A stretch of DNA of 64,000 nucleotides from Amphiscolops sp. MND2022 (GCA_964187785.1 OZ076409.1:2978001-3042000), one strand, 5' to 3'. Counted from the stretch's first letter, positions 20,616 through 44,048 are shown. Notes: generated by a model from the letters alone, not told the origin. Numbers and translations are program-made.

Positions 20616-20628
20616 GCTGACTGCGCCA
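20616..20628 (-). promoter_or_regulatory. Primer binding site TGGCGCAGTCAGC (tRNA-Ser-like)
   Basis: Abuts the 5' LTR; complementary to a tRNA 3' end ...GCUGACUGCGCCA of the tRNA-Ser type. Confidence 0.75.
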
Positions 20629-20842
20629 TGTTCTATTCTAGGGATATAGGTTAAGAGAAAAGGAAATTGTTAAAAGAGATAGATCTATGCTTGTATCACT
20701 GTATTGTAACCAAAACAAAAGTATAAATGTATGTATGGTATGAGAGTCTATTTAGAGTTTGTTGGTAAACAACTCCTATTTTCTAGACTGCTGGTATCCG
20801 AATTTACGGTAGAGGTCAAGCCGGTATGAATCGAATATAACA
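20629..20842 (-). repeat. 5' LTR of the Mag-like element
   Basis: Direct repeat of 14985-15198; TG...CA. Confidence 0.95.
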
Positions 20843-21856: not shown

Positions 21857-22241
21857 TTGACCAGGAATCAAAAAATAAAAAAATGACCATGAATTTAAAA
21901 AATCAGGTGATATTTTTTGGGGGCTGTGAACGCCAAAGTAACTTCAATTTCATTTGATGCATGAGTTGAGGTATAATACTTGAAAATGTTTTAGGTGTTT
22001 TCAGATTGAGAATAAAAACCACAAAAAGTAATTCTATTTTGTATTTTGGGAGCTGACAGCATTGTGAATATGAAAAAAGACCCAATAAAAAAGATCGGTG
22101 ATTAATTTTTTGTTGTTTTTGTCCATAAGGCACGTCCTGGAAGATAATATATGTTCATTCTCGCCAAATTAAGACCTTTAATTGAATCATTAAATTTTCC
22201 TTCAATAAACGTTTTTCTTCAAAAAAATTTTTAATTCCTGC

Positions 22242-23108
22242 CTGCAAAACCAAAGCCGGGACTCTCAGATTTTCTGGGATCGATACTTCGTACAAATCCT
22301 GCAGAAACTCGGGTCCATTGTTGTTTTGGTCAATCAGGGTTATTTCGACACTCGTAAAGCCTGTCAAAGTCGGTTGCCCTTTGTCGAAAACTTCGATTGT
22401 CAGATTGAAAACCGGGTGTTTCAAAATATCAACCGAGTCTTGGGTTTTGATTGACAAAACGCCAGTTTCAGAATTGATTTCAAAAGCGGCATCTAAATTT
22501 CCTGCCAAAATTTTGAAGCCGATCTGATTGTTTGGACTGGTTGCATCGTTATCGAAACCACCGATACTCCCAATCACTGTTCGTATTGATTGCAACTCCG
22601 GTATCTCAAATCGGTATGTATCGATATCACTTTGTGGGTTGTTATCATTGACGTCAATCACCGATACCTCGATATCAGCGGTTGAGAAAGACGAGCCGTC
22701 AGAAACGATTGCTTGGAAAATAAATTCAGCGTTCGTCTCTCGATCTATCATCCGGGAGGTATAAATGTCACCCGAAGTTTCCTCGACACGAAAGGGCAGA
22801 TCATCCATCTCGGTTAGAAGCGAAAACTTGAGATTAACTGTATCCGCATCGGTGGCGGAAATTTTGCCAACAAATGTGTCCAAATTTACGTTTTCCTGGA
22901 TCCGGAACGAATATTTGGACTTGCCGAATTCAGGCGCTAAGTCGTTCACGTTCAATACGATGACTTCTAGAATTGTCTCGCTCGAGAGGTAAGGGGGCTC
23001 CATGTCGGAAGCAATGGCTACGAACTCCAGACGACCTCCTGAACTTTCGAAGTCAAGAATTCCCACAAGCGTGACCTCGGCGGTTGTAGGGTCAATTGCA
23101 ATCGGGAG
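22242..23108 (-). CDS. Cadherin exon K (LPIAIDPTTAEV...PENLRVPALVLQ)
   Basis: cttacag acceptor; about 2.5 cadherin repeats; donor inferred as CAG|gcagga (GC). Confidence 0.92.
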
Positions 23109-24479
23109 CTGTAAGAGGAAACATGATAGCGCTAATCGTTGATTAACGAGAACGAGAACAAACATTTCATGTGTCATAATAATCGTTTTGAAATCACAAA
23201 CGTACTATAGTCAATAATTTTAAATTGCTACTGCTTTCAGGAGTTTTTTAAAGCTCTTTCTGATTTTTTTGATTGAAAATCTTAAAATTGATAAAACTGG
23301 GAACCTTTGAAATTAATCCTGGAATCCAATTTCATACGAGAGCCATTTTACACATTGCAGTGTTTCAGTCACCGAAAAAAAAACAAAAAAAAACAAAGAA
23401 AGAATATTCTTTAGATCTTATGCTAAAATAACTCTTGGTAGAATATATTTTTTTCACTACGAAAGGTTGAACAAAAATTGACGAAAACCCACTACTGTAT
23501 AATACAGTTCCAAAAATGAAGGTTCAGCCAGACGAAAAACTGAAATTACCCAGAATTTTTTTTACTGAAACCCAAAATGATCAAGAAAACTTTGTTATAG
23601 TTTATTGTAACATATGCGACTAGAAACTAGAGCACTTTGACCTCTGAAACTAATGAGTTATTGCAACTTGGGACCATGTGTCTTAGTTCTTCCCAGGTAC
23701 ACCTTGATTCGCATTTCAGTCAACACGAAAACACGTTTTATTTCTCAAATAAATTTTGCACGAATAAAAGAAATTTATATGGTTACAAATACTGGAGGAA
23801 TTGTCTCTACAGCTGTTTTGACATTTCCAGCAAAAAAAATTACCTTGATTTTTTTTGATATTATTGTTAAAAGTAGCAAACTTTCTTGCCTAGAGCAAGC
23901 CAAAATCGTATAGAAAGGCCACTATTTTAACGCAAACTTTCCCCGCCGTAAAATAACTTGAGCCACTTTTAACTGTGAGTCAATGTGAAAGAAGAAATGA
24001 TGTCAAAATTTTTATTGCACCGGAATTGCAACGCAAGGTATGTCGATATAATAGTATTTGAACCTTTTTTCCGTTTCCCCCATTGAATGTACGTCAACAC
24101 TTTTTGGACCATTCCATGTTAACGCTACAATTGTTTTTGCCATAAAGACAACAGTTGATTTACTCAAACCCAAATCCGTTGCAATGTTTTCAAGATTATC
24201 CGCTGATAGAGTTTTTGACATGGTTTATCATCTCTTTTCAAACGTGTGCATTTTCAAACGTTCAACATACAAAGAATCTGTATGGGACCTGGAAATGAAC
24301 AATGAAATCGAATCATGCAATGTTGTGAGATGGTCCAAAACGTTTTGACTCGCTTTTCGCTGACAGGTCCAAAGCGAACACATCTTTTAGAGTGGTCCAA
24401 AGCGTTTTGACTCAAAAAGAATCATGGTTCGAATTTCTACTCAATGTTATCATGCAAGTGAAGTGATAAAACTACTCAC

Positions 24480-25104: not shown

Positions 25105-25280
25105 CTGAAAAATGGGAAAATTGAAAAATAGTAACCAACCGACATCAGATGGTTGTCAAAATCACTCATCTCCATCTAACGAACGGTTCGTATGACGTAG
25201 TAAAGTAAATTGCACGATAGTTTAGATAACGATGCTCATTTTCTTACTGTTCTTGTATATTTAGTCCTCTGTAAATTAGT

Positions 25281-25698
25281 TGTGATGCCATGATGCATGT
25301 CCTCAAAGATTTTATAAATCTGAAATACTCTGAACTCTTAACAAAAGAAATTAGTAAATCTAATTGAATCTAGAAACCAATTATTCTAGAAGAAACTTCT
25401 TTTAATATATCCTGTACCAAGCTTCCCCAATTCATCCTGTTGATGTCACATTGTAATTGATGAAACCTACCCTAGTTAATAGAATATATCTACTCGGAGA
25501 AATTGAGAATTCTTCCTAGCAATCAGTCTTCTTCCAGCACTTCAAGAACTGAGATCTCAGAAATAGATTGTACTCTGAACTAGCTAGCTACCAAGTATCA
25601 GATAAAAGATAAGACGACTCTGCTGTTAAAATCTTAGACTTCTTATGTCAGTTCTAACTCGTATAAAAGAAACAACTACTAAAACTTTTAACAGCTCA
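25281..25698 (+). repeat. 5' LTR of the giant element
   Basis: TGTGA...GCTCA; identical by eye to 42886-43303. Confidence 0.96.
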
Positions 25699-25700
25699 AT

Positions 25701-25712
25701 TGGTGCGACCAA
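25701..25712 (+). promoter_or_regulatory. Putative primer binding site (TGGTGCGACC...), tRNA not identified
   Basis: TGG 2 nt downstream of the 5' LTR. Confidence 0.6.
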
Positions 25713-26419
25713 GAAAATTCTTCTTTCTCTCCCATTTATTTCACATATCTACAATTGTTGTACACCTTTTCTCAACTTTCTCATCCGATATCTCTTTGTT
25801 CGACACACAGTCTCTCCACCTCTCAATATTGCATACCGTTATTAACTTCAACGTTGCAACCAATTTCTACTTGAAATTGATCCGTGTTGCTATGGTTCTG
25901 ACTGCGTTCATCAACGTAATTCCTGTCAGTCATACTTCTTGGTTCTGACTACGTTTCTTCACGTAATTCCTGTCCGTTAAATTTTTCGTTCCAACCACCT
26001 CTGAGTGAATTCGTGTTGGCTTTCTTCCTCTCTCTTTCTTTCGTTCCAACCGCAGACGTGCGATACGTGTTGGCCCTTCTACAGTGCTATCCAGCGATTC
26101 CTGCTAGTAGAAATCTTTTTGGTTCTAGCCGCTTGGATCAACTTTAAAGTTGGCACACCTATAAAACACATATTTTTACATAACATAATTATAATACTTT
26201 TCTTATTCTCTCTTCTATAATACCAACCCCATACAAAACTCCTTTGAAACTCTCTTACGGATCCAAATATATAACAATTAAAATATATAATACATAATAA
26301 TCTAAATATATAACATATATCACATCTTTCTTTATATAACTTTCATTTTTTCATACAACTATATACAACAAATTCCTGTACAACCTTTTTGACAAACTTT
26401 AAATAAAACTTTATTGTAT

Positions 26420-26542
26420 ATGCCGCCTTCAGTAGACACTATAGTTAAACTTATTGTCTGCTTTTGGTTTTTTGTTGCTATCATTGCCGGTCTTGCACTT
26501 TTTCTAGACAAATTTTTAATTTCATTCATACCAAAATTTTAA
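26420..26542 (+). CDS. 40-aa hydrophobic upstream ORF (MPPSVDTIVKLIVCFWFFVAIIAGLALFLDKFLISFIPKF)
   Basis: ATG to TAA read by hand; one TM-like stretch; coding status unproven. Confidence 0.35.
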   Translation: MPPSVDTIVKLIVCFWFFVAIIAGLALFLDKFLISFIPKF

Positions 26543-26561
26543 AGTACAATCTTTTTCTTCT

Positions 26562-26801
26562 ATGTTAACAAGTATAGTACTACCTCTTTTTGGACTACTT
26601 AGTATATACCACACTTTCAAAATACTTATCCAATATATACAAAACCCACTTCTTCTTTTCATAAGTATTGTACTTACTATTTTTCTACAAGTTATTTTTA
26701 TAGATCAAATTTTACCATATAATTCACAGTTCAATACAAAATATCTTCTTTTCCGATACATCTATCCTTTATGGCAATCCTATTGTACTAATCAAACTTA
26801 A
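26562..26801 (+). CDS. 79-aa hydrophobic upstream ORF
   Basis: ATG ORF with two hydrophobic stretches, ending 9 nt before the gag ATG. Confidence 0.35.
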   Translation: MLTSIVLPLFGLLSIYHTFKILIQYIQNPLLLFISIVLTIFLQVIFIDQILPYNSQFNTKYLLFRYIYPLWQSYCTNQT

Positions 26802-26810
26802 TATCATATA

Positions 26811-29800
26811 ATGCTCCCCACTCCATTTACACTCTCTACTGATAAAAGACAAAATCGATCTCTTATACAATATGTAACACCTTTTCTACAAAATATTATC
26901 TTTCAGTACACTAACCCACTTCCATTTGAAACAGAACCCCATATATTACACACTATTCCATTAATACGAGAACATTGTGATTCCTACTTATATTATATCC
27001 AATATAAAACACTTGACATAACACCATCACAAACCCCTTTCCAAGTTATTTTTAATCCTGTTAAAGGAATAAACTCTGGAACATTTTATAGAACTATACA
27101 TCCACAGAATATTACACTTTCTATACAAGATGTTTTTCGCACATACATGCAAAAACTCATTGAATTCAATGAACACCAAGACATACCACCTTATCGTCCT
27201 TCTCATTTACAAGAACTCAAACACTTATCTGAATATTTCGAGGTCCCTGATCTTGACACAAAAGTTCAAAGACATGGTAACCCTCATTATTGGCTACAAC
27301 GAGATATATTACAAATAAAGAATTTCGAGTTTAAATTCTTTACAAAAATTACCCTTACAGATGACACTATACCTCAAGTCAAAATTTTTACACATTTCTT
27401 ATTAAAATTCTTTAGATTTAACTACCAATTACTTTGGGAACAAAAAGACCAAAACGCTTATACTAACTTCCCAAAAGCATTAACAGATATAGAACTCTTA
27501 CCATACATCATAGACAATAAAAACAAACACTCACATTACATTGATCTTACTTCATTAAATGTTACACATTTTGAACAAATAAACCTAGATCACAACTTTG
27601 TACTTGAACATTCTGAAACGTCAGATAGTAGACCTTATATTACATCTGATACTTTATATCACACAACTCTTCCAACACAAACATTTAATGTTGAACCTCC
27701 ATATATCAGACAACAATCAGAACAATCAGAACAAGAATCTATAACACAAGAAACACTTGTTCATCTTTTTCAAAATCCTGATTCTCCTCAAGAACAATCA
27801 TCACAGCCACCACAATCACAAACCTCTGATACGCGACACCCAAATCCGTCTGAAACACATACACTTCCCAATACATCAGAATTTTCTGACGAAACAGTAC
27901 AAAATCCACAAAGTTTTACAATAACTGAAGACTCCAATCTTATAACAATTCCTACCCATAATATCACCCAAAGGACTACAAATCAGAATCAAGACAACCC
28001 TTCAAATATCATTACAGACAATACTTCTGTTTTATCTCCATATAATACTAACATTACACAACCCTCTCAGACACAAATAATACCTCCTCGAAATTATGAT
28101 CCACCTCCTATTCCATCTCAATTCTCAGCTCAAATAAATACTCATGTCTCTCCTCAACCAAGCTCATCAAATACACACTCTATTACACAGAACAATAATA
28201 CAGTACATTTCCAAACACCAACTCCACCTTCATCTTCTGAAATACAAACTTCAACTTATACTCCAGCTCAAACTAACCCAGTACAAACTACACAGCCTAC
28301 CTTAAATATTAACACAATTCATTCTAACCCGCTCTCTAACTATACTACAGCCAGACATCTGTCTCGGCCTCCATTACAACCTATATTAACTGACCCATTA
28401 TCATACAATCTCACCAGTACCAATCCAAGTCATACCCAACAATGTCAAATAAATTATAACACACACAACCAATTAAACACTCTTTCTTCCCAGCATACAT
28501 CTAATACAATCCCTCCTACATTACAAACCTCTCACTTTCAAATATCAAATCCTCCTTCAACAACAATTAGAACTAACCCTCACTTTCATAATACTTCAAC
28601 TATCCCTTCAACTAATATTTCAAATCATCCTACATACAATACAACACCTCCATCTACTATGTCTCATAACACTATGTCACATCCAACATATATTAACTCT
28701 TCTACTTCTATATCAGAACCCATTAAACCTTTTGATGGACTCGATCACAACTATACACCTGAAGAATATTTACAACATATTGAGGCACGTGTTACATTCT
28801 CCTTAGGTTTACAACCTACATCAGAACATGAATATAAATTTTGGCACGCTCGCGGCATGGCTTTCATACAATGCTCTTTAACAGGTACAGCACTAAGCTG
28901 GTACATCCGTTTAAACGACACTTATAAACATGATTGGCACGCTTTCGTACAAGCTTTCAAAAAACAATTTTCCTCACAAAAGAACGCTTATTACGCTCAA
29001 GTTGAAGCCCTTAATTTAACAAAGAAAGATAATGAAACAGTACGTCATTTTGCACTCAAAGTTCAACAACTGGTTGAAAAAGGCTGGTGTAATGAGAATG
29101 CATCTACTATAAACCTTAAATGCAATGAAATCTTTACAAAAGGACTTCCAAAAACCCTTAAAGACTTTGCAAATAAAAGACAAGTAAAACACACCTCCAC
29201 TGTCTTAGAACCTTCAATTCCTTTCCATACCTTGGTAAAACTTGTTGACGCTGAGGATATTGCAAACGACAAAATTAGAACACATGATCTTGCACTTGAA
29301 ATCAATAATATTACAAAACAATTGAACACTCAAACCCTAGATCACCCATCTCAAGAACAACTTATGTATACACAACCCAAAGACCCAAATAACAAAAATA
29401 AACCTGCATATAAAAAATACTGCTCATACTGTCATAGAACAAATCACTCCATTTCTGCTTGTTTCAAAAAACAACGAGATGACGAAGATAAACGAGAAGC
29501 ATATGCTCGATCAAAATCTCCACAAAAATCATTCGTTCAGTACTTTCGTTCTCCTTCAAATGACAAAACAAAACACTATGATAATCGATATCGAAGTCGA
29601 AGTACTTCACGAGATAACTCTTATAACCAAAAATATTCACAAGATCGATACCGTTCTACATCTCGAGATAGAGACCGATTTCGTTATGATAAAAGTACTA
29701 CTCCTCCACATTACTCCAGATCCAGATATGACACATATAAACGTGATTCTCGATCTTACCGTTCTCCTTACAGATCTTCTTATAGATCTCCCTATAGACA

Positions 29801-32800
29801 AAATTCTCGTCCTAGATACAGATCACGCTCCTATTCAAGAGATGACAAATTTAACAAATACACAAATTCATATAGACCACCTTCTAGACCAAGAAACTCT
29901 CGATTTTCCAGATCCCGATCACACTCAAATTCTAGAAATAAAATCAATATAATACAACAACAAGAGCAAACAGACCCTATCAAATTTGAAGTACACATGT
30001 ATCACCCAACAGCAATGGCAAATGCTGTCACACCTACAAGCTGGTTTTATACTCTATATGTACACACCCCATCAAGTATAGTACAAAGAGACAACCCATC
30101 TAGATTAGAAATTGCATTCCTCCTAGATAGCGGTGCTTCCATTTCTGTACTCAATTATCCAACATACATAACTCTTACAAAACTTCTCGATATCAGACCA
30201 AATCACACCTCTGATGTCGGACCAACTAGAAATTCCAAAACACTAACTGTTGCAAACCAAACTGAAGTTCCTATTTTACATTATGCAAATATCATTCTGA
30301 ACACCACTATTGACGAAAACTCTCGATACTTTTCAGTACCCTTCGCAGTAGCTGATATTAAATACAATATCCTTGGTACACCATTCTTCGAAGACAATAT
30401 ACAAAACATAAACATACAAGACTTTACACTCGAATTTAAATACCAATCAAAAACACACCCAAATTATGCAAAATTTACAACACTTCTATCTAAAGATTAT
30501 CCATACTTCTCTTACATTTATAGAATTAACTCAAAAACTCAAATACGTCTAAAACCCAAATCTTCCAAAATTGCACACTTTCGGATCAAAAATTATCATA
30601 ATCTTCATTTTACAACTACACCACAAAACCACTTCTTTCCTTCAGTACCTCATACCTATTTTGCTACCAAATTCCGTACAAATTTCAATTTCATTGAAGT
30701 TTTTACAGACGACAAGCCAGACATATGTGCAACTATTATTCAAAACACTTCAAAACATATTGCAACGCTACCTACAGGACATATTGGATACATCGAAGTT
30801 CCAATTACTAATGAAAAACCTAAATTCTTCCAAGTTAACGACATTAATACTTTAATACATAATGTTACTCATACTTATCATCCTGATATTACCGAACCAC
30901 TTCCACAGACCAATTATATTGTACAATATGATGATCCTACAACCCCTCCTCCACAATTCTCTCTACATCAAATTTATATGACAAATGACAACATTCCAAA
31001 CCAAACTTCTCCTCTATATAACGTTCAGCCTACTTCTCATACCTCAGAAAAACGCATTTTCCCTTCTCTTCCATATACTTCTGAAAATCTGAAATTTATT
31101 AACAAATTTAATTTCCAATTTTCTGATCTTACAGACTCAGAATACATTACTCTTTGCAATATGCTACTCAAATATAAAACATGTTATGCAACCCATAAAA
31201 ACGATGTTGGAAAAATTTCAACACCCTTTCGTATACGACTTAAACCAAATGCTCAACTTATGACACAACGTCCTTCCAAAGTTCCTATTCATTATCGAGA
31301 CAAATTAAATGCACTTCTCAAAGAACTTGAAAAATATAACATTATTAAACAAATTGGCTCTTCTCCTCAAGACAAACCCGTTTATGGCACAACTTATTTA
31401 AATCCTCTTATTATAATCCCCAAGGGAGATACAATAAAATGTGTATTAGACGCCCGACATCTTAATTCCAATACAGAACAATCTGATGAATCTTGGCCTA
31501 TTGAACCTCTTGCTCCACAACTAGCACGCGCAAACAAAAAGTACAAATCTGCTATTGACCTTATGTATGCCTATGCACATACACCTCTTGACGAAGATAC
31601 TATAAAACTTACTAGCTTCTCTTCAGGAGACAAACTTTTCGCTTTCATACGAGGCTTTTATGGTCTCAAAGGACTACCAAATTTCTTTACAAAACAAATG
31701 TCTACATTCTTTAAAACTCTTATAGAACAAGGTTTCGCGCTTGTCTACATTGACGATATATTACTTTTATCCGACTCTAAAGAACACATGTTTCAACTCA
31801 TAGAACAATTACACATTATCAGTACAAAAAATAATCTTAAACTAGCCCCTGAAAAATCCTTTTTCATGCTCCTCAAAGTCAAATTCCTTGGACATGAAAT
31901 TGGTTACAATACAATTAAACCAATTCATTCAAAAATTGCAGCTATTCATAAGATCCCTTCTCCAACTGGCAAAGTTGCCTTAATGAGTTTCATTGGCGCA
32001 CTCAATTTTTACACCAAATTTATTGAAAAACTACATATTAACCTCAAACCGTTTTACGATCTTTTACATGAAAACACTCCTTGGAAATGGACAGACGAAC
32101 ACGAAAGTCTATTCCAAAAACTTAAAATGTCTCTCACTTCTGAAACAGAATTAACAATACCGAACACAAAACATCCATTTTTCATTACAGTTGACGCTTC
32201 CCTTATTGGATTAGGCGCTGTCTTATTCCAGTTAAATGAACAAAACAAAATGAAAGTCATATCGTACAACTCTCGTATACTTAACCCACAAGAACAAAAA
32301 CTCTCCACACTTGATAGAGAACTCCTTGGTATAGTACACGCACTTCAAATCTATGAATTTCTTATCATAGGTTCTCCACATCCAATACACATTTTCACTG
32401 ATCACAAACCTTTATTACATTGTTTTACAAAGAAAGGTAATCTCAGCCCTCGTTTCTATAGAGCTCAAATGCAATTGACAAAATTTTCAAAACTCAAAAT
32501 AATTCACACCCCTGGAAAAAATCTCTCTGTTGCTGATGTGTTGAGTCGCTCATTCACAAAAGCTGAATTACAACTTAACCAATTAAAACATAAACACCTC
32601 CCACCACAAATCGATTTTGCACTTTTACAAGATAACACTCTCAAACGTGTACATTACTTAATAAAACATGAAGAAATTTTACCTCATCAAAAACATGACT
32701 CTCATCCAATTCTTGCTGATTATGGTACAGATCAATTCTCTATTCGTATCAATGATAAAGGAAATGACATTATTGTAAAACCCTTACAATCTTTCTCCTT

Positions 32801-33491
32801 CAAATCTGTAACTCCTTTTCAAACCAAATTTAAGACACCTACAAAAAAGAATAACAAAACCCTTCATCAACAATCTCTCTTACTCAATGATACTGACGTT
32901 ACAAGTGATGACGAAGATCATATTTACACCAGAATTCCAAAATCTGACTCTTCCTTCTCACAAGATACTACACTACAAACAGAAAATTATTCTACTCTTA
33001 AACAACCAAGTCACAACACTTCACAGAAATCAATTTCTGCAATAAATGTACAACCAAATTTACCATCTCTCACACACTGTCAACAAATTATACCTTTTTA
33101 TGATACATCATTTTTTAAGTACAAAAACTATTTTCAAGGTTTCTTCCTTCCAGATGATTACTCATTGGACATAAAAACTCTCCAACAACAGCAATCCCAA
33201 GATCCGGTTCTTAGAACTGTTTATTCTTGGTTACTAAACAATGAAAAACCCGAATTTATAACACCTCTTATCACTGGTACTCCATTTCTACATGTATATT
33301 ACAAAAGATTTTCACAACTTTTCATTGATGAATCCACTAATCTTATTAGTCTGTATATTACAAACCCCACTGTTAATAACCAATCCTCTACTCCAAATTT
33401 TGTACTACAGATACTATTCGCATATGCCTACCTTTCCGACTGTTTAAAACTGTCTTTAACAAACTTCATGAACATTCTCACACTGGTATGA
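26811..33491 (+). CDS. Gag-PR-RT-RNase H polyprotein (2226 aa) of the giant element
   Basis: Capsid-like IKPFDG region, CCHC knuckle CSYCHRTNHSISAC (29421-29462), RS-rich tract, protease LLDSGAS (about 30126), RT YIDD (31746), RNase H VDAS/TDHKPL/ADVLSR. Confidence 0.96.
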   Translation: MLPTPFTLSTDKRQNRSLIQYVTPFLQNIIFQYTNPLPFETEPHILHTIPLIREHCDSYLYYIQYKTLDITPSQTPFQVIFNPVKGINSGTFYRTIHPQNITLSIQDVFRTYMQKLIEFNEHQDIPPYRPSHLQELKHLSEYFEVPDLDTKVQRHGNPHYWLQRDILQIKNFEFKFFTKITLTDDTIPQVKIFTHFLLKFFRFNYQLLWEQKDQNAYTNFPKALTDIELLPYIIDNKNKHSHYIDLTSLNVTHFEQINLDHNFVLEHSETSDSRPYITSDTLYHTTLPTQTFNVEPPYIRQQSEQSEQESITQETLVHLFQNPDSPQEQSSQPPQSQTSDTRHPNPSETHTLPNTSEFSDETVQNPQSFTITEDSNLITIPTHNITQRTTNQNQDNPSNIITDNTSVLSPYNTNITQPSQTQIIPPRNYDPPPIPSQFSAQINTHVSPQPSSSNTHSITQNNNTVHFQTPTPPSSSEIQTSTYTPAQTNPVQTTQPTLNINTIHSNPLSNYTTARHLSRPPLQPILTDPLSYNLTSTNPSHTQQCQINYNTHNQLNTLSSQHTSNTIPPTLQTSHFQISNPPSTTIRTNPHFHNTSTIPSTNISNHPTYNTTPPSTMSHNTMSHPTYINSSTSISEPIKPFDGLDHNYTPEEYLQHIEARVTFSLGLQPTSEHEYKFWHARGMAFIQCSLTGTALSWYIRLNDTYKHDWHAFVQAFKKQFSSQKNAYYAQVEALNLTKKDNETVRHFALKVQQLVEKGWCNENASTINLKCNEIFTKGLPKTLKDFANKRQVKHTSTVLEPSIPFHTLVKLVDAEDIANDKIRTHDLALEINNITKQLNTQTLDHPSQEQLMYTQPKDPNNKNKPAYKKYCSYCHRTNHSISACFKKQRDDEDKREAYARSKSPQKSFVQYFRSPSNDKTKHYDNRYRSRSTSRDNSYNQKYSQDRYRSTSRDRDRFRYDKSTTPPHYSRSRYDTYKRDSRSYRSPYRSSYRSPYRQNSRPRYRSRSYSRDDKFNKYTNSYRPPSRPRNSRFSRSRSHSNSRNKINIIQQQEQTDPIKFEVHMYHPTAMANAVTPTSWFYTLYVHTPSSIVQRDNPSRLEIAFLLDSGASISVLNYPTYITLTKLLDIRPNHTSDVGPTRNSKTLTVANQTEVPILHYANIILNTTIDENSRYFSVPFAVADIKYNILGTPFFEDNIQNINIQDFTLEFKYQSKTHPNYAKFTTLLSKDYPYFSYIYRINSKTQIRLKPKSSKIAHFRIKNYHNLHFTTTPQNHFFPSVPHTYFATKFRTNFNFIEVFTDDKPDICATIIQNTSKHIATLPTGHIGYIEVPITNEKPKFFQVNDINTLIHNVTHTYHPDITEPLPQTNYIVQYDDPTTPPPQFSLHQIYMTNDNIPNQTSPLYNVQPTSHTSEKRIFPSLPYTSENLKFINKFNFQFSDLTDSEYITLCNMLLKYKTCYATHKNDVGKISTPFRIRLKPNAQLMTQRPSKVPIHYRDKLNALLKELEKYNIIKQIGSSPQDKPVYGTTYLNPLIIIPKGDTIKCVLDARHLNSNTEQSDESWPIEPLAPQLARANKKYKSAIDLMYAYAHTPLDEDTIKLTSFSSGDKLFAFIRGFYGLKGLPNFFTKQMSTFFKTLIEQGFALVYIDDILLLSDSKEHMFQLIEQLHIISTKNNLKLAPEKSFFMLLKVKFLGHEIGYNTIKPIHSKIAAIHKIPSPTGKVALMSFIGALNFYTKFIEKLHINLKPFYDLLHENTPWKWTDEHESLFQKLKMSLTSETELTIPNTKHPFFITVDASLIGLGAVLFQLNEQNKMKVISYNSRILNPQEQKLSTLDRELLGIVHALQIYEFLIIGSPHPIHIFTDHKPLLHCFTKKGNLSPRFYRAQMQLTKFSKLKIIHTPGKNLSVADVLSRSFTKAELQLNQLKHKHLPPQIDFALLQDNTLKRVHYLIKHEEILPHQKHDSHPILADYGTDQFSIRINDKGNDIIVKPLQSFSFKSVTPFQTKFKTPTKKNNKTLHQQSLLLNDTDVTSDDEDHIYTRIPKSDSSFSQDTTLQTENYSTLKQPSHNTSQKSISAINVQPNLPSLTHCQQIIPFYDTSFFKYKNYFQGFFLPDDYSLDIKTLQQQQSQDPVLRTVYSWLLNNEKPEFITPLITGTPFLHVYYKRFSQLFIDESTNLISLYITNPTVNNQSSTPNFVLQILFAYAYLSDCLKLSLTNFMNILTLV

Positions 33492-35008
33492 AAATCACCT
33501 ACAATACATTCAAACAATACTACTATATTCCATTCCTTGAAAAATGGCTTTCCATTTTCATACATGACTGTATTGAATGTCAACGTAATAAGCACTTCAA
33601 TATGAAAATTCAAACTGCTCCTACACAATCATTTTCAGAACATGCTCCATCTTTCAATTATAGAATCTCAATGGACACTAAAGGACCTATTAACCCTCAT
33701 TCTCATAACAAATCCTATATACATGTAATAATTGACGCTTTTAGTCACTTTGTTGTTACAGTACCCATCAAATCAAACAACGCAAAGACTGCTATCAAAA
33801 CTCTCTTACACCACTGGATTATTAAATTTGGACCACCCATATACCTTGTCACTGATCGTGGATCAGAATATGTTAACAAAGAAATGGCACACCTTTGTAC
33901 ACTTATGGGAATTCGTCATTCTCCTAGAACAGCTTATTCTCCTTGGACAAATGGCCTTGTTGAAGTACAAAACAGAAATCTTGGTACTCATCTTCGAATG
34001 TTCCTACATGACACACCTAAAGATTGGGCATTTCAAGTCCATATGTACGCTTATGCACATAATTCACAACCACTTTCAGAACTCAATGTTTCACCTCACG
34101 AAATTGTTTTCCATACTAGACCCAGAATACCCCTCACATTTGATTTAAACCTTAATCGAGATACCTCCAAGACATGTATTTCACGCTATTGCTCTCAACT
34201 CCCTGAACACTCTCACTATGATAAATCAGATTTAAACCCATTCTTCTATAAGACACTTTCAAAACCCATTCCCCAATGGTTTCTCGCTGTAGAAACTGCT
34301 ATGTTACAAATTTATTCCACAGTCTATGAAAACACCCTACGAAAAATTAATTCACACGCATACATTACAAAAACTTACCACGAAGGTAAACCCCTTCCTA
34401 TTGGTACCTTTGTTTTAAAACGCAATTTTACACATGTTCACTTTTCAGACAAACTCAAACCCCTTCGGATTGGACCATATAAAATTCTTGACAGACTATC
34501 AGACGTCACATATGCACTACTTGCACAAGATGGCTCTACAGTACACGTTCATAGAAATCATTTAATCCCATATTACCCTGAAGAACCACTCTTATATCCA
34601 CATTTGCGTAATTTTATGCGCTTTTCAGACACAACTCAAAACCAAATTCCACAAATTACCAGATATGCAAACAGTGATTCTTCCCCGTTTAATTCTGATG
34701 AATCTTTGTCTGAAGAAGATTCTCAAACATTTATGACACCACCATCATTTAGTACATCCAATCAAAATACACCATCTATAACATCCAATGACAAGTCTTT
34801 AACTTCCTCAACCAATGACAACTCCTTATATAGACATATAATTAATACCCCTCACACTAATGTCCCTAGTGACAGATCGAGACACCCTTCTAACAACCAA
34901 ACAACTTCACTTCCTCCTCTAATTGACAGAACCACAAAAACCACTTATAAACTACGACAACAACCCAAATTAGATTATAGACTTTTTATTACACCTTCAA
35001 AACTGTAA
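33401..35008 (+). CDS. Integrase of the giant element, in the -1 frame relative to gag-pol
   Basis: HHCC (LHEHSHTG...CIEC) begins upstream of the ATG at 33488; DDE core (SMDTKGP, VTDRGSE, GLVE); GPY motif. Confidence 0.94.
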   Translation, partial: CTTDTIRICLPFRLFKTVFNKLHEHSHTGMKITYNTFKQYYYIPFLEKWLSIFIHDCIECQRNKHFNMKIQTAPTQSFSEHAPSFNYRISMDTKGPINPHSHNKSYIHVIIDAFSHFVVTVPIKSNNAKTAIKTLLHHWIIKFGPPIYLVTDRGSEYVNKEMAHLCTLMGIRHSPRTAYSPWTNGLVEVQNRNLGTHLRMFLHDTPKDWAFQVHMYAYAHNSQPLSELNVSPHEIVFHTRPRIPLTFDLNLNRDTSKTCISRYCSQLPEHSHYDKSDLNPFFYKTLSKPIPQWFLAVETAMLQIYSTVYENTLRKINSHAYITKTYHEGKPLPIGTFVLKRNFTHVHFSDKLKPLRIGPYKILDRLSDVTYALLAQDGSTVHVHRNHLIPYYPEEPLLYPHLRNFMRFSDTTQNQIPQITRYANSDSSPFNSDESLSEEDSQTFMTPPSFSTSNQNTPSITSNDKSLTSSTNDNSLYRHIINTPHTNVPSDRSRHPSNNQTTSLPPLIDRTTKTTYKLRQQPKLDYRLFITPSKL

Positions 35009-35109
35009 TCTAGTCATTCTATCTGTTGGCTTACTCAAACCTAGTCACTCCGGTTGAATAAATGTTGAATAAATGAAATAAAACTCATAACAAGTTATCT
35101 TACAGATAA

Positions 35110-36366
35110 CCTGTTGAAAACACTTCAACAATCCTGGATCCTCCCTCTGATATCTCTCCATCAGCTCCAAGTATTCCTTCTACACCTGAATCTTCAGTAT
35201 CAAACACTACAAACTCTAGTAATGTAACTCCTACTACTCCTTCTAAAAGACCCAGATCATACATCTCTGAAACCACTTCTTCTTCACTTCTTCACAGACC
35301 ACCTATAACCGAAATTCCTATAAACACTCGTCCCCAACAAACTCCTATTAACACTCCTATTATACATATACCAAACCCTGAAAGTGTTGAACAATACGTA
35401 ACATACAAACACCCTACAGCTATAAAAACTGTTAGACTCCAACCTCAACTTAATCTAGTACAAATTCCTGATACTGAATATACGAAACTACCTCCACTAA
35501 AATTACCTTCAGAACTTAGCACTACAGAACTTAGCACTACTTCTTCAAAACTTTATCCACCATTAAAACCTCTTCGAAAACCCTCTACATCACTCTCAAA
35601 TCTCTTAGACAATAATACTTCTGACTACGCTCCATCACAAGACACAAGCTCATTTTTTGTACCTAAACATAGATATAATCTTCGTGACCTTCCTTCACGT
35701 AGACTTAGTACAGACACTTCCACACTCAATTTTTCCGCTCTTTCTAGCAATTCTGCATTACGACTTGTAAGACAACACGCTCAACCATTGTCCTCTGACC
35801 CATCATCTTCAGAACTCTTTCAATCTCCTTATTTTACTTCTGGTTTTGAAACCGCTTCATTACTCTCATCAAACCCACAAACTGCATTTCTATCAGGAGA
35901 TCTCTTTTCACAAGTAGTAATCCCTACTCCTGTTCCTGCACATATTAGACTACCTGAATACTATACTGCAGAACATTCTAGACCTCCAACCCCAAATTTT
36001 GCTGATTATCCACTTCGAGTCGATGGTATAATTATCTACGACCCACAAAACGATCCTCGATTTCCAATTCTTGCAGAACGTTTTATTAATAACAACGATC
36101 TCTTATCTCATAAACGTAAAGAAACAGAACTAAAACGTCTTCAGACACCAAATTTAGAACTTAAATTTGAAGTCAAAGTCAAATTTCAAGGATTAAATCC
36201 TCATCCAATATTTCACGTTTCTAAAATAGCACATAAAACCTCTCCTGCTCCTTTTGAAGTAGTACATATTGAATTCGAACGCGATCTTAATATACCCACT
36301 ATCACGTATGGCAACATTGTCTTCTGTAACCCATACTCTGGTCTCAAATATAAAACATCCTTTTAA
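35110..36366 (+). CDS. ATG-less Ser/Thr/Pro-rich ORF (about 418 codons) between integrase and env
   Basis: Stop-free from 35110 to 36363 (the ORF track shows only 35788 onward); overlaps the env start. Confidence 0.55.
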   Translation, partial: PVENTSTILDPPSDISPSAPSIPSTPESSVSNTTNSSNVTPTTPSKRPRSYISETTSSSLLHRPPITEIPINTRPQQTPINTPIIHIPNPESVEQYVTYKHPTAIKTVRLQPQLNLVQIPDTEYTKLPPLKLPSELSTTELSTTSSKLYPPLKPLRKPSTSLSNLLDNNTSDYAPSQDTSSFFVPKHRYNLRDLPSRRLSTDTSTLNFSALSSNSALRLVRQHAQPLSSDPSSSELFQSPYFTSGFETASLLSSNPQTAFLSGDLFSQVVIPTPVPAHIRLPEYYTAEHSRPPTPNFADYPLRVDGIIIYDPQNDPRFPILAERFINNNDLLSHKRKETELKRLQTPNLELKFEVKVKFQGLNPHPIFHVSKIAHKTSPAPFEVVHIEFERDLNIPTITYGNIVFCNPYSGLKYKTSF

Positions 36367-39015
36367 ATCTTACACAACCTCTTATATAACAACTATAATT
36401 CTTTTCTTACATTTCTTTAACTCTACCTTTTCCATACCTATAGCACTCCCTGACACAGAAAACTATCTTCCATCAGATGACCCGAATATTACAAATCTCA
36501 TGGTTTCTCATTATGATTGTGCAAAACAACACAATCTCAGACAATTTAATCTACTTAATGTAAAACAATGCACTGAAGCTCCTTCCGACATTAAACATGC
36601 AAGTGTTAAAGCCCGTGTATATGTCCGAGCAAAAGCTAAACGTATCAAAGCTTTCAAATGTGTTGCTTATGCAAAGAAAGAAAGGAAAATATGCTTTCAA
36701 GGATCTGTCAAATACCGTCGTGTTGATCGAACTGTATGGAATCATAATACATTACCGCTTCCTGTTACTCTTGACCCGGTAGAATGTAAAAACATTATAA
36801 GACATTTAAATGGTACAAATGATAAAATATTGAACAACCTTAACTACAACAAAACATTTACACTCTTAGAAGACCATTATTTTCAAGAACGTTTAGAACA
36901 ATATCAAACTCCTTTCACTGTATATCAATTGAACAAAATGTATACAGGTACATTTACATTTATGCCTGCTGATAAAAACTGGATATATGACCCTACAAAA
37001 AACCCTTATCATAACTGTCCTGCTCATCATCAATTCGAAGTCAACTTAGTTAGTTGGCGACTAGAAGTTTCCGAAATAGAACTTACATATGATGACACAT
37101 CAAATGATATGATAATTGATGGACATACATTACCCTGCTATTTTGCAGATGGCTTCTGTAAACCCACTACAAAAACTCCTTTTACCCTTGTTTGGTTTAA
37201 TGATGATTATTGTCTAATTTTTACCTTACAAGACTTTATTGGACGTATGACTGAAATTGAAGATAGATATTGGATTGAAACCGACTCTTTTGTACATTCT
37301 CCACATTCAGTAAAATCTCAAACTACTTCTGGCATAAAAGGTACAGAACATCCTTATGTTCATGCTCCCCATACACAACATCCAAATAACCCAAGTCTTT
37401 CAAGATTTGAAGTTTTTCCTACAGCACAAACCTTTTGTGGTAAACCAGACCCTCTCTATTCTACACAATACTCAGACTTTTTTGTTACATACACTGATGG
37501 TTTTAATATGCATACAGGACAACCTAATCCTCATTCCATAATTGATGAGTATATCTCTGGTAAAATAGTATTGGACACTTCAAAAAACAAATTTGTGTTT
37601 CCTGCATTAAATGTATCAAACAATTTCGCTACCATTGATTATGATGCACATATAAACACCAAAATTGACTACACTATTAATCATGTTTTTCGATCAATGA
37701 CAGTACAAGAACTAAATACTCTTCATACAATATGTGAACTAGAACGAAATCAACTTCTTACAATACTCGCTATGTCAGTACAAAATCCTCAACTTGCTGG
37801 TTTCCTTTTAACCGGTAATAGAAGTAACTTCTTATACGTTGAAGGCTCAACCGCCTGGCTTTATGACTGTCCTCATTTTTTATCTCCTTTATACAAAGCA
37901 GATAGATGCTTTGACCGTATACCCATACATTTTAAAGATACCTTAATGTACGTTGATCCTATTACAAGACAAACTTATGATTATGCTACACCAATTACAT
38001 GCGATAATAATCCACGTAACATTATTGAACTCGACCCTGATTCAGATGATCAAGACTTTTACATTCTTGGACCTGAACCTATCAAACGTAAACCTCCACT
38101 AATGTTTACACCCTCACAAATCAAAACTACAATACGCCCTAATACTTTTACAGCCCAAGATGCTGGTATATATTCAAATGCAGAACTTGATCAATTTTGG
38201 AACCGTATTTTATTTTCTAAACACTCTGATTCTACACTTCAATTGCTAGGTAAAGCTCTTAGTTATTCATTCATTTCATCTAATACTCCAAATTACGATG
38301 CAGATTCCCCTCAAGACTCTGGTAATCCTTACAATACAATACGAATAGGACTACATGATAAACTCTTGAATTTAACTCCTCTTTTCACACCTACATGGTT
38401 CTCTGATGCTTTTATTGCACTTTTTGATACCCTTGTTACATTCTTACACAATGTGGCATATACTTTTCTACATTTCTTTTTGTACAAGCTACTCTTACAC
38501 TTATTGTTAAACTTTACAAAACAATATCCATTAAATATAATCTTAAAAATAATATTACTTTACTTAGTTCTATTGCACATGGTTTTTTTAATGTTCTTAC
38601 AGCACGAATGGTCAGTGACCTACGTGAGACTCAAAACAAAAAACCCAAAAGTACACTTTTCAAATCCAAATCTTTAGATAACTTTATTGACACTTCTCCA
38701 AATTTAATTAACCATTCTACAGATGTTACTTCCCCTCCACCTTTTTATACCAAACGATCTAACAAAATTCAATTTCCTAAATTTAACTTCTTTCCGAAAC
38801 GACACCACAATTCTCACCATAAAACGACTCCACTTCCTTTCTCTTCTATCCAACATCCCCCACTTCCTAATTATACTCATAAAAACTTTCACTCGAATGA
38901 CAATCTAACCACTCAACATGACACTTTAATTAACAATCCTGTCACTTCTACTACGGATACACCAATTAAAATCTATTCACGAATAAACTATCCTTTTCCT
39001 CCTCCATCTTCTTGA
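36308..39015 (+). CDS. Envelope-like class III (chuvirus G / herpes gB-type) glycoprotein, with a frameshift near 38426
   Basis: Signal-like YITTIILFLHFFNSTFS; HYDC..LLNVKQC; CELERNQL..QNP..G..EG..DC..CFDRIPI..P.TR..C; GIYS..LD; sequons NIT, NGT, NKT, NVS, NRS; TM and tail continue in the frame of ORF 38608..39015. Confidence 0.85.
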
Positions 39016-39261
39016 ACTCTCTCTCAGTTCTTCTGAAACTCTCTTCCAGAACACTCGCCTGCTATTTCTTCACAATTGCTACTCCTCCAACACTTGAAAC
39101 TCTTGCAGAAATTCATCTTCCTCAGTCCAATAATACTTCTCTCATAATAACCATCTTCAAAAACTCTTCAACTAAAGTTGACAAATCCACTCGTTAGTGT
39201 AATTTATAGTACTTTAACTTTAAAGTGCTAAGGCCTCTTGGAATAGATAACACTGTGACTG

Positions 39262-40608
39262 TTGATGCTTTCTCAAACAATGACACAAGCACAAATTGAT
39301 CTACAAACACAGCTTGAACAAGCAACCCCAACAGATCTTATAACAAGACCTCTTTCAAATGATTCTCCTGTTCTCTATATTGACACTTCTGACAAAACAC
39401 CTCCAACTTTTCTTGAACCAATGGAGCACACAAAAGTTGAAAATGAAAATACAAAACCTACTCCTCCACAAGATGATACTGATCATACACAATCGACACC
39501 ACCTCCTCCAAAAAAGCGATATGAAATAATGAAAGATCCAATCTTTCTTTCATCACCAATATATCCTCCTTCAATACCTTCAAAAATTTCACTTTGCACG
39601 AATCGCGATGATCATTTGATCTCAATTCTTTCCACTGACGATTTCGTCTTTAAAGCACAACTAACTTCTCTATATATGCATCCTACGGACTACTCATTTC
39701 GCTTATATGACAAAAATCAAGACTTCTTCACATCCATTGCTTCCAAAATAATGGGTCCATACCAATATTGGCTCGAGAATGGAGTTAAAATTTTCTCTCT
39801 CCAATTCAATTTTCTTAGACCTTCTATATACGATCTCAAAACGGATGAATCTGATCCATCCTTTCTCTCTATAGCACAAAAAGCTTCTCATCATCAGACA
39901 TATACTAAATTTCTACAATACACGAAACCACAAAATTATATTTTTGTCAATTACAAATATACATCACCGTTCACAATGACAAATATGTACACTCTCGATC
40001 ATTCCTGTATAACAGGCTACCTTCGGAACTATGACCCTATAAAGCAATACTTCTGTTTGCTTCCATATAACAATACTTCACGTCCACTTATTGTACCTCA
40101 AGAATATCTTATACATTACGATGATTTTTTGTTGCCTTGCAACATCCCTACTCAAATTGCAAAACCTCTTACTGTCATTAAACACCTCGTTTCTTCTCCA
40201 CTTGACGATAAAGATAGAACATACTATACAGCACTCTACAAACAAACGTATTCCTACAATGAACTTCTCTTTATATCTGCCAAAACTATCTCTTTCATGG
40301 TACAAGCTGAACAAAAAACTGAACAAAAATCACACACTTCGCCCATCAAAAACACTCATGACAAACTTTCCTCTGTATTGACCAATCGAACACTTCGAGA
40401 CATAACAAATTTACTGGAACCCTATAAACGAAACTCCTCTGAAACACCTATCACAACACTCACACATATACTACACTGTTATGACAGAACACACAAACTC
40501 CTTCAGACACTCGATTTAGACTCTCAACGCATCACTCAATCATCCCAAGCAATCCAAACTGCTTTGGAAACTATAACTACTCTTTTTAATTCAACTAATC
40601 TTCATTAA
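39262..40608 (+). CDS. Accessory ORF (448 aa) downstream of env, unknown function
   Basis: Intact long ORF; C-terminus similar to ORF 63641..63979 of the related element. Confidence 0.75.
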   Translation: MMLSQTMTQAQIDLQTQLEQATPTDLITRPLSNDSPVLYIDTSDKTPPTFLEPMEHTKVENENTKPTPPQDDTDHTQSTPPPPKKRYEIMKDPIFLSSPIYPPSIPSKISLCTNRDDHLISILSTDDFVFKAQLTSLYMHPTDYSFRLYDKNQDFFTSIASKIMGPYQYWLENGVKIFSLQFNFLRPSIYDLKTDESDPSFLSIAQKASHHQTYTKFLQYTKPQNYIFVNYKYTSPFTMTNMYTLDHSCITGYLRNYDPIKQYFCLLPYNNTSRPLIVPQEYLIHYDDFLLPCNIPTQIAKPLTVIKHLVSSPLDDKDRTYYTALYKQTYSYNELLFISAKTISFMVQAEQKTEQKSHTSPIKNTHDKLSSVLTNRTLRDITNLLEPYKRNSSETPITTLTHILHCYDRTHKLLQTLDLDSQRITQSSQAIQTALETITTLFNSTNLH

Positions 40609-41018
40609 ACTCCTCTACAGGTAATATAAAGTTTTAAATTTTCTTCTCTGGTACATTCTATGGTACATCTGTGGCACATTCTACAAGGTATTTTCATTTT
40701 TATTTAACAAAAATCTTTACTTTTGAATGAAATCTTAGGACTGTTTTTTAAGTACACTAATTTTTCCTACAGTACATGTCAAAAACTAACTATTTTTTTA
40801 CTCAAAACACTACAATACAAGACATACAAGACAATATAAAATAACACTACATATGGTACATTATAGCACCCATTTTTGTTGTACATCTTTGACTTGATAT
40901 TGTCATTCTTCTTACACTTCCTTTGTTTTAGAAACATCCATTCTTCCTTCTCCTTCATCCAAATTCTTTCAGAACATCCCAACTTCTCTTTCTTCGTATT
41001 CTTCAAACTCTCGTCATA

Positions 41019-41471
41019 ATGGCTCCAAATGCTGAAACAAACGACATTCTAACAATGACTTCAGAATTTTCGAAAGTGCATAGTCTTAAAGCCGCCATAT
41101 TTCATACCATGGCCTTCAAACTCTCGCTTGAGATTCACAAAAACAAAATTACGCCAAAATGTCTCATCGCTTTTTTAAAAGTACTCTACAATGTCACGCA
41201 AATAAAGAAAAAGAAAATCACTTTCGAGCAATACTCGCGAATCCATCTTCAAGGACCTAAAATTGCCATTTGTGAAACGGCATCTAATGTTGTTTTCGTC
41301 CTCAATTCGTCCTTTACTTCAAAGGATCAGTACTTTCGTGCTGCTATCCAAGAAGCTACAGATGCTTTTAATAATATGTTGCAAGATTTCGGGTATACTC
41401 AACAACTAGAACTTTATGACCCGATCCAACACCAACCTCATCCTCCATCGCAAAACTCTCTCTTTCAATAA
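41019..41471 (+). CDS. Accessory ORF (150 aa), unknown function
   Basis: ATG ORF; ITFEQYSRIH matches INFDQYLHIH in ORF 62643..63296. Confidence 0.65.
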   Translation: MAPNAETNDILTMTSEFSKVHSLKAAIFHTMAFKLSLEIHKNKITPKCLIAFLKVLYNVTQIKKKKITFEQYSRIHLQGPKIAICETASNVVFVLNSSFTSKDQYFRAAIQEATDAFNNMLQDFGYTQQLELYDPIQHQPHPPSQNSLFQ

Positions 41472-41700
41472 TCTCTAACACAAACTTCTACTTACTTCTA
41501 TTTCACTCTTTGACTACATTTCGTCTCCAAATTCTTCATCTTCTTTCGATGATGCTTCGAAATGTGGTTGATGATTACTTCAAAGAACTCCTACACATGC
41601 TGAAACTCTTCACTTCACCCACCCACGATGGTCAACAACATCCATCTACACTTTGGGTTCATCGACGTTGCCAAAAATTGTCCTCGTCATCAGTCTCCAC

Positions 41701-41836
41701 ACTTCAAATGCTGACTTCTTGACTGGTCTTCATCCTCCAATGCTGACTTCTTGACTGGTCTTCACACCTCAATTGCTGACTTTGTGAACTGGTCTTCTTC
41801 ACACCTCAACTGCTGACTTCGTGAACTGGTCTTCAT
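41701..41836 (+). repeat. Four tandem 32-39 bp repeats (TGCTGACTT...ACTGGTCTTC) in the 3' UTR of the giant element
   Basis: Directly visible. Confidence 0.85.
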
Positions 41837-42885
41837 ACTTCAATGGCCAATACAAATTTCAAACTGAACTGTATAATCACTTATAATCAATATAACCTGT
41901 AACCCATTTTAATCAAATCATAATATAGACTAGTGCTATATACTCGTATCTAAATTTTAATGCTATATAATCTTATCTAATCTAGTGCTATACACTCCTA
42001 TCTAATCTTTCGCGCTATATAATCTTATTTAATCTTAATCTTATCTAACCATTGTATAACTACCCCCCATTAACCATAATCCTTCCCAAATTTTACCCAT
42101 AATTATTCTTGTAACCACAATATTATCTACTTCCATTGTATTGTGTATAGAACTTTAACATTATCTTACATAATTATCCACTTCAAAATATATTTTAATC
42201 CCCGTCTTTTTACAGAACACAAGTCCTACTTACAGCACAAGAAATTTTCTAAGATTTTTGGACAAAAATTTTTCTTTTACAAAACATGTTCTACAACTTT
42301 CCTTTAACCCTCAAAAGCATTCCCAAAAAATTTTCCAAAATTTTCTTTCGAACTCTTAAAAATTGTCACTTGTAAAATATGTCACTTCTAGTTTTCAAAT
42401 GTTTGAAACTTGAAATAGCCAAAGTTTTTTTTCAACTCTTGCTTCTGCTCTACTCTTCACTTTTGTTGAAAATGAACTCTCACTTCAACCTTGACTTTTC
42501 AAAACTTCTTCACTTTTGGTTCACATACCCGCCAATGTTGGTTCACAATTCATTGACAACTTCACGCTTTAATTCCTCAACTTGAAAAGTTTTCAATGCT
42601 GACTAACTCATGTTGATGAAACAAACTTTTTCAACAAGCCGATGGAAACTGAAAGAACTTGAACCTGTTTGAACCTTTTTGCACCAATTGAATCGTCTAT
42701 GACGTAAGAAGTCAAATCGTCTTAGGTTGTTCTCACTCCTTAAGTATGGTACTCTACAAAACAAAACTCATGCAACTGTAATACAACATATATGAAACAA
42801 ACCCATGCACATAACAAAAACTTCTAGAACTCCTCAAACTCAAAAGTGCATATATGTAATTTTTATTTTTAAATTCCCGGTTGAT

Positions 42886-43303
42886 TGTGATGCCATGATG
42901 CATGTCCTCAAAGATTTTATAAATCTGAAATACTCTGAACTCTTAACAAAAGAAATTAGTAAATCTAATTGAATCTAGAAACCAATTATTCTAGAAGAAA
43001 CTTCTTTTAATATATCCTGTACCAAGCTTCCCCAATTCATCCTGTTGATGTCACATTGTAATTGATGAAACCTACCCTAGTTAATAGAATATATCTACTC
43101 GGAGAAATTGAGAATTCTTCCTAGCAATCAGTCTTCTTCCAGCACTTCAAGAACTGAGATCTCAGAAATAGATTGTACTCTGAACTAGCTAGCTACCAAG
43201 TATCAGATAAAAGATAAGACGACTCTGCTGTTAAAATCTTAGACTTCTTATGTCAGTTCTAACTCGTATAAAAGAAACAACTACTAAAACTTTTAACAGC
43301 TCA
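42886..43303 (+). repeat. 3' LTR of the giant element
   Basis: TGTGA...GCTCA; followed by the TSD TAGT. Confidence 0.96.
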
Positions 43304-44048
43304 TAGTCAAAAAGCTTTTAAAAGAAATAGACAAGCTATGAGTGGTGAGAATAACGAGCAAATTACGAGAGCAAAAGAATTTGCTTCGAAAGGTGTGGAA
43401 AACTGTCATACTTCGCCAGAAATCTGAAAACCTGCTTTGGAAATCGCAATCAAACACAAAATTAAAAATCCAATCAAAGTAATTTTATGCCAATGTAGAT
43501 GTTCAATTTCAAATCAATAGACAAAAAAAAGAATTTCATTTGAAAAACTCTGGAATGGACAAGCAAATTCTTTTATAGACTGTTAAGACTAACTAACGGA
43601 GTGTTGCTTTGAGTAGTCGCTTTGGAAATAATTGGGGTAGATGTAGGTGCAAAGAAAGCACTTTCTTCCTCAGAGTCAGAGTTTTTTAGAACTTGAGGCT
43701 CAGAAGTTTTCTTCAAGCTAATATCTAACAAATTTAGCATCTCCTTCTGATTTTTTGCTAAAAATTTTGTGTGATAGGACGTTATCTCTTTTCTAAGTGA
43801 CATTTTAATCTTCCAGACTGACGTTTAGGGAATTTGCTAGTTCCAGCGCCTGGGTTTTCAGCTATGTTGTTCTCAATTTCTGGTATGTCCATCTCGCCTG
43901 AGACTAGTGTTCTACTGCTTTTCTTTTCTGGTAGTCATAAATGAAGATTTGCAATAATTTAAACTTGCAAAGAACGTTTTAGAAACGGTAGTACAATAGT
44001 GGTTGTTATTTACATTTTGTTTAAATTTGCATTTCAAAACCAACAGAT

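Follow-up and report, generated by a model that had tools for sequence, protein, structure and literature searches.

Envelope (env) genes of the gB type have been described in Ty3/gypsy elements ("errantiviruses") across many animal phyla (Chary and Hayashi, eLife 2026, PMC13524379). In Supplementary file 1 of that article, 221 of 1,512 elements are gB-type and 1,291 are F-type, in agreement with the premise of a first-pass annotation of our locus that F-type is the usual env. For non-insects, the prefilter used there retained regions of ≤10 kb with a pol–env gap of ≤1 kb before manual steps, and a term search of seven supplements finds no Xenacoelomorpha in the taxon list, which would bear on our locus only if its host were acoel-like. 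Mosquito BEL/Pao elements with a chuvirus-like glycoprotein (Dezordi et al. 2020) are cited in the same article. Main-text passages of two acoel genome papers do not mention env, a point on which their supplements could bear, and no published description of the element family reported here was found in a body of literature short on subscription journals.

We analyzed a stretch of 64,000 nucleotides (hereafter the window), which contains a Ty3/gypsy long terminal repeat (LTR) element of 18,023 bp at 25281–43303 with an env gene inside. At a probability of roughly 85%, we read this gene as the env of a young, frame-broken 18-kb Ty3/gypsy copy in an animal genome, specifying a predicted class III fusogen that was likely inherited from a distant ancestor and not recently captured. 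The env class and its pairing with gypsy are already known; what is new is mainly the size, the extra open reading frames (ORFs), and the large family.

All features of the element described below lie on the plus strand. The element is flanked by a 4-bp target-site duplication, TAGT (left copy, 25277–25280; right copy, 43304–43307), and ends in two 418-bp LTRs, the 5′ LTR (TG...CA) at 25281–25698 and the 3′ LTR at 42886–43303. The LTRs are identical at 418 of 418 positions, which together with the target duplication points to a young insertion. A TGG stretch resembling a primer-binding site lies 2 nt past the 5′ LTR (25701–25712); its 3′ 9-mer is missing from the PBS/tRNA table of PMC13524379, with no matching tRNA end, and no purine-rich tract directly precedes the 3′ LTR at 42886. 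Two small hydrophobic ORFs in the leader, of 40 aa (26420–26542) and 79 aa (26562–26801), may both be due to chance, the former in T-rich DNA. A composition scan found a strong C skew in the interior, and short tandem-like repeats occur in the leader (25893–25984) and the 3′ untranslated region (41693–41847 and 41923–42026).

The first long ORF (26811–33491, 2226 aa) fuses gag, protease, reverse transcriptase (RT), and RNase H of the Ty3/gypsy type, with Pfam matches to Retrotrans_gag (E 3.5e-08), RVT_1, and RT_RNaseH and with DSG and YIDD motifs. The best solved-structure matches to the RT are 4ol8 (E 7e-37) and Ty3-G Gag-Pol 7q5b (E 2e-36). Integrase, recognized by Pfam as a zinc finger, core, and SH3-like C-terminus, occupies 33380–35008 in a frame other than that of RT, and the Pfam domain order of protease–RT–RNase H–integrase is that of Ty3/gypsy.

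Read from the ATG at 36308, env returns a single Pfam family at E values up to 1, PF24664 Monjiviricetes_fusion (E 1.2e-24, 86.7 bits against a cut-off of 27). The signal-like segment and ectodomain (36308–38428) contain 14 cysteines and seven potential N-glycan sites; none of these ectodomain cysteines is lost in any of the 16–18 distant homologs aligned at its column. Because of this Pfam score and these conserved cysteines, the combined motif and Pfam match is judged, at the level of sequence, to be far above chance. The motifs reported by the first-pass annotation were all recovered in the frame from 36308, namely YDC (36512), LLNVKQC (36551), CELERNQL (37733), NP (37784), EG (37841), CFDRIPI (37907), PITR (37958), and GIYSNAELD (38165), as was its signal-like segment (residues 27–48), which is mildly hydrophobic on hydropathy (Kyte-Doolittle 1.5–1.6). 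No furin motif (R-X-K/R-R) occurs in the env frame. In the full-length relatives P0001, P0002, and P0169, hydropathy places signal and transmembrane segments on the two sides of the ectodomain.

The interval 36308–39015 had been annotated as one env, which does not hold, as it comprises two frames; the break between them had been overlooked. When full-length relatives are aligned, the env frame is seen to part from the family sequence near 38430, and beyond this point it continues in the wrong frame until a stop at 38677. The transmembrane segment of the family (~38452–38514) and the cytoplasmic tail are encoded in 38428–39015 in another frame, as seen from alignment with sister proteins, and the product of this stretch is 95–97% identical to the C-terminal 195 aa of the full-length proteins P0001, P0123, and P0127. 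In this copy the transmembrane segment thus falls past the break and out of frame with the ectodomain. The out-of-frame run of the first env ORF contains a hydrophobic stretch as well (residues 738–768), which is not homologous to the family anchor.

This break, just before the anchor, is one of two in the copy; the other, near 33400, is where pol departs from the family frame ahead of integrase. The sister proteins P0353 and P0438 hold RNase H and integrase within one protein, reading through the position near 33400. A distant relative described below, locus L001, also shifts frame just before the integrase zinc finger (~5160–5200), which is probably coincidence because the close sisters P0353 and P0361 read through. 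When "intact" is taken, as in PMC13524379, to mean uninterrupted ORFs, this copy is not intact and the family is, as sister proteins read through both breaks. Unless the breaks are assembly errors, the copy could make neither a normal anchored env nor a fused integrase, and it either moved in trans or was broken after insertion. There is a sizable, if minority, chance that both breaks are indeed sequencing or assembly errors and that the real copy is intact, given the identical LTRs, coding parts that are 96–98% identical to intact sisters, and the abundance of fragmentary members in the database. Against this, three other database proteins (P0187, P0006, and P0040) match the same out-of-frame run past the env break, so breaks near 38430 recur, whether they are true lesions or the product of one repeated error. 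The error explanation bears solely on the state of this copy and not on the identity of its env.

In order to place env structurally, residues 55–706 (652 residues) were modeled with AlphaFold using an alignment of 90 rows. The ectodomain model (mean pLDDT 75.9, pTM 0.58, with pLDDT <50 in 90 of 652 residues) displays long beta hairpins and a 45-residue central helix. All 32 matches listed by Foldseek against the PDB are herpesvirus gB (best E 2.9e-13), at whole-chain TM-scores of only 0.26–0.31. The leading hit in BFVD is the glycoprotein of a chu-related virus (E 1.2e-26, TM 0.40, 14% identity), and proteins from chu-, xinmo-, qin-, and rhabdo-like viruses come next, the top ones reaching only 12–16% identity and TM ≤0.43; rmsd values of the top Foldseek rows range from 12 to 28 Å. 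The top 11 of 50 rows in VIA-align are all class III and include the Chandipura and Bourbon virus glycoproteins. There, gB aligns over 438 residues with an rmsd of 17.7 and a Z of 9.1, barely above the range that the tool calls common, and the rabies G PH-fusion domain aligns over 70 residues with an rmsd of 2.5 (Z 6.5). In model residues, PH-fold matches cover ~40–350, the rabies PH-fusion domain 57–244, the match to PRV gB domain IV 13–554, and the central helix 391–435. The predicted model has a class III layout, comprising a PH-like domain with an inserted beta-hairpin fusion domain, a long central helix, and a beta crown. The predicted fusion-loop segments show no strong hydrophobicity and differ from homolog to homolog. 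Neither the ectodomain sequence nor a 90-row profile had a match to sequences of solved structures at E values up to 10.

As a prediction, the assignment of env as a class III (gB/chuvirus-type) fusion glycoprotein is well supported. The first-pass annotation had proposed this class and had named AlphaFold with Foldseek as a check; the check returned structural matches to class III proteins, both herpesvirus gB and viral glycoproteins, and VIA-align and PF24664 agree. Its more specific pointer to chuviruses stands insofar as a chu-related glycoprotein is the best viral model, but is too narrow, as xinmo-, qin-, and rhabdo-like proteins also rank at the top with 12–16% identity; "chuvirus" is the structural neighborhood of env, not its donor. 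An F-type env was weighed separately and rejected on the missing R-X-K/R-R motif and the sole Pfam family PF24664. The Foldseek matches listed for PDB and BFVD contain no F-type protein, though another family may stand among the unlisted ones, and the earlier view that env is not F-type is borne out by motif, Pfam, and these matches alike.

The family to which this env belongs is large. The env protein search gave 168 matches among 3,168 candidates, and the representative search gave 2,029 matches at E up to 0.001. Four close env clusters hold 1,758, 603, 424, and 1,585 distinct sequences, with all listed members from ENA; these counts are not copy numbers per genome because fragments are counted too, from an unknown number of assemblies. 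Full-length proteins (850–930 aa) make up 3/15, 9/15, 7/15, and 2/15 of the listed members, respectively. Ectodomain identity across the four subfamilies is 59–98%. Compared with P0002, P0169, and P0042, the window env is 89, 65, and 59% identical in the ectodomain and 44, 33, and 34% identical in the tail; across the four subfamilies these sequences retain the ectodomain much more closely than the tail, which is taken as a sign of selection. In three sequencing runs, contigs made up of many divergent pieces cover the 18-kb element. A single contig of run X2, 9.9 kb long, carries integrase, ORF3, env, and ORF5 in one piece, with 378 differing letters and 43 gaps across ~6,950 nt; the extra ORF region is therefore a family trait and not solely a feature of this copy. 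No RNA data set appears among the five runs listed for the sequence. An adapter-like loose end on one X2 contig is compatible with RNA or amplified DNA alike. A metagenome scan for env relatives confirmed 0 of 150 candidates with the close alignment and 8 of 34 with the broader one.

Known class III fusogens form glycosylated trimers that first insert the loops of their fusion domain into the target membrane and then refold. On this model, an intact family env would be made as a type I membrane protein carrying glycans and would assemble as a trimer; two loops at the tip of its fusion domain would insert into the target membrane, and refolding around the long central helix would follow. Drosophila gypsy passes from soma to germline with an F-type env, and env could likewise carry Gag/Pol particles of this family from cell to cell, probably from soma to germline. 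We infer the trimer, fusion, particles, and transmission route of the family env from such known systems. It is unlikely, in our estimation, that env is instead a structural relic or has a non-entry role (e.g., receptor blocking or particle release) while the family spreads in germ cells like an ordinary retrotransposon. The young copy does have a broken env, short members dominate two of the four env clusters (12/15 and 13/15 of those listed), and the entry mechanism of gB-type elements is called unknown by the authors of PMC13524379. However, the short members may be gene-calling or assembly fragments, and four subfamilies, the most distant at 59% identity, retain the ectodomain with all 14 of its cysteines even as their tails diverge.

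The case for an old association between env and this lineage draws on a single locus and on protein pairs with equal contig sizes. The locus, L001 (13,166 nt), carries gag, pol (RT 48% identity), integrase, a gB-type env (ectodomain 35%), and three further ORFs, with gag-pol-env in the same order as in the 18-kb element. RT trees, built from 38 and 19 selected rows of 120 listed matches plus the window and locus sequences, unite the window family, L001, P0361, P0362, P0364, and very long gag-pols in one long-branch clade with a bootstrap of 100. Five large clusters (P0378, P0380, P0390, P0397, and P0401; 437–1,493 members each) fall in the same RT clade at 43–45% RT identity, with gag-pol proteins of up to 2,740 aa. 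P0361 (RT 50%) and env P0215 (31%) come from contigs of equal size, 12,398, as do P0354 (RT 79%) and env P0150 (53%), at 315,788; from these equal sizes, each pair is taken to be co-located. The window ectodomain is 30–35% identical to the envs of distant relatives, L001 included, and its cysteine spacing (17-30-11 ... 7-18 ... 45-13-31) is common to distant homologs. Since L001 carries the same env and cysteine frame at an RT identity of 48%, env appears to be old in the RT clade. Glycoprotein and RT trees had been put forward for comparison by the first-pass annotation; the RT clade has a support of 100, and by percent identity env divergence tracks RT divergence, so that long co-inheritance fits where recent capture does not; the deep branches of the env tree are poorly resolved, and the window family sits there on a long branch of 1.0 changes per site from all distant homologs. 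The same annotation had suggested a capture in this lineage, which is not supported in view of the gB-type env of L001 in the same RT clade and the 30–35% identity to distant relatives. Recent capture of the glycoprotein by the element's own lineage from a chuvirus-like RNA virus is very improbable: among viral models, the closest in structure are chu-like glycoproteins, the long env branch sets the family apart, and a similar capture has reportedly been proposed for mosquito BEL/Pao elements (Dezordi et al.), but env is 30–35% identical to distant homologs such as the L001 gypsy env versus 12–16% to the top viral models, shares its cysteine spacing with those homologs and its env type with the RT sister L001, and has no encoded relative in any of 41 candidate viral contigs, from a collection poor in animal RNA viruses.

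Its gB-type env sets the element beside several described systems. Like the HSV/gB-type env gypsy elements of PMC13524379, it has a Ty3/gypsy pol, gag-pol-env order, LTRs, and multiple copies, and its env shares with theirs the signal-ectodomain-transmembrane arrangement, a predicted gB fold, conserved cysteines, and a dispensable furin site. It differs from the set in that article in its length (18.0 kb in total, 12.2 kb between the start of gag and the end of env, and a 1.3-kb pol–env gap), in the fusion of gag and pol in one very long frame, in its extra ORFs on both sides of env, and in a copy that is not intact. The mosquito BEL/Pao elements (Dezordi et al. 2020, as cited there) carry the same glycoprotein class, whereas the window pol is Ty3/gypsy-like and not BEL/Pao. 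The segment between cysteines 5 and 6 spans 76–77 residues in the window env family versus 41–68 in 10 distant homologs. Monjiviricetes fusion glycoproteins (PF24664; chu-, xinmo-, qin-, and rhabdo-like viruses) are alike in Pfam family and best predicted-structure matches, but differ in identity (12–16% in the top structural alignments) and in setting, as the window env sits in an LTR retroelement and not in a negative-strand RNA virus. The Chuviridae glycoprotein gene belongs to a negative-strand genome with L and N, whereas the window env follows pol inside an LTR element. The solved class III proteins herpesvirus gB and rhabdovirus G resemble the predicted model in domain order and folds by Foldseek and VIA-align, but at ~10% identity and with no sequence-level match. 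Herpesvirus gB requires gH/gL and gD, whereas no gH/gL or gD partner was identified for the window env.

Three additional ORFs lie around env. ORF3 (35110–36366), which begins ~100 nt past the integrase stop, has a Ser/Pro/Thr-rich N-terminal half and belongs to no known family; the sister proteins P0126, P0117, and P0221 match its C-terminal half at 50–86%. As there is no ATG in its 418 open codons, its translation would need splicing, readthrough, or a non-ATG start. Atlas leads for the C-terminal half were rejected (scores ≤0.90, low recognition). ORF5 (39265–40608, 447 aa), covered together with env by one sister contig, gave no Pfam match above cut-off, no Atlas match, and a single-sequence model with a pLDDT of 33, and ORF6 (41019–41471, 150 aa) matches no known Pfam family. 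Extra ORFs past env are also seen in distant relatives (L001, 9651–12095; locus L002, 3075–3719); an unnamed domain with a coiled coil behind it recurs in two of the L001 ORFs and in one L002 ORF, at 31–34% identity. By hhalign, ORF3, ORF5, ORF6, and an ORF at the window end each have a probability below 1% of matching this accessory domain (4/4). Our best guess is that ORF3, ORF5, and ORF6 are regulatory or assembly helpers of the element, and a bolder option is a role as partners of env.

The window-end ORF (62643–63341, 232 aa) is weakly similar to ORF6 (E 0.033) and lies in a minus-strand region, 62001–64000, with mirror-image GC skew (+0.38), which probably represents the 3′ portion of a further large element truncated where the window ends. 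A second Gypsy element, at 14985–20842 on the minus strand, is of ordinary size (~5.9 kb), with repeats 97% alike over 214 nt; it encodes a zinc knuckle, protease, RT, RNase H, and integrase in broken frames. It has a cadherin ORF on either side, and the RT tree shows no relationship between it and the 18-kb element. Exons of a FAT4-like cadherin gene lie at 8635–9804 and 22155–23204, both on the minus strand, and their presence near the element points to an animal host. A search with the cadherin exons gave six matches, with the best relatives only 26–30% identical beyond one 99% self-like match, and this low identity suggests a divergent animal host. Elsewhere in the window, a 1430-codon open frame (2115–6407, plus strand) lies in a GC-rich stretch (52–57%) and has no Pfam match. 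A dispersed short repeat family occurs in both orientations (7967, 9889, 13748, 21392, 44037, 47616, 59703, and others) and tRNA-like repeats lie at 10674 and 11657; these are probably SINE- or MITE-like.

A broader proposal, which we offer tentatively and hold to be rather unlikely, is that the element belongs to a deep-branching clade of giant gypsy elements (13–18 kb), "complex" and retrovirus-like, with a class III env and accessory genes of their own, lying outside published size filters and present in thousands of copies in an animal lineage beyond the survey, perhaps that of an acoel-like worm. If this were true, an envelope-driven infectious element would be a main builder of the host genome. 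In any event, the 18-kb element makes plain that surveys with a size cap overlook the largest elements that carry an envelope. The authors of PMC13524379 leave open how retroelement envs of the gB type can function when the herpesvirus partner proteins are missing, and whether such envs bring about spread at all. With four env subfamilies and conserved extra ORFs next to env, the present family, which is young and very large, is a natural series for testing partner-free gB-type env function.
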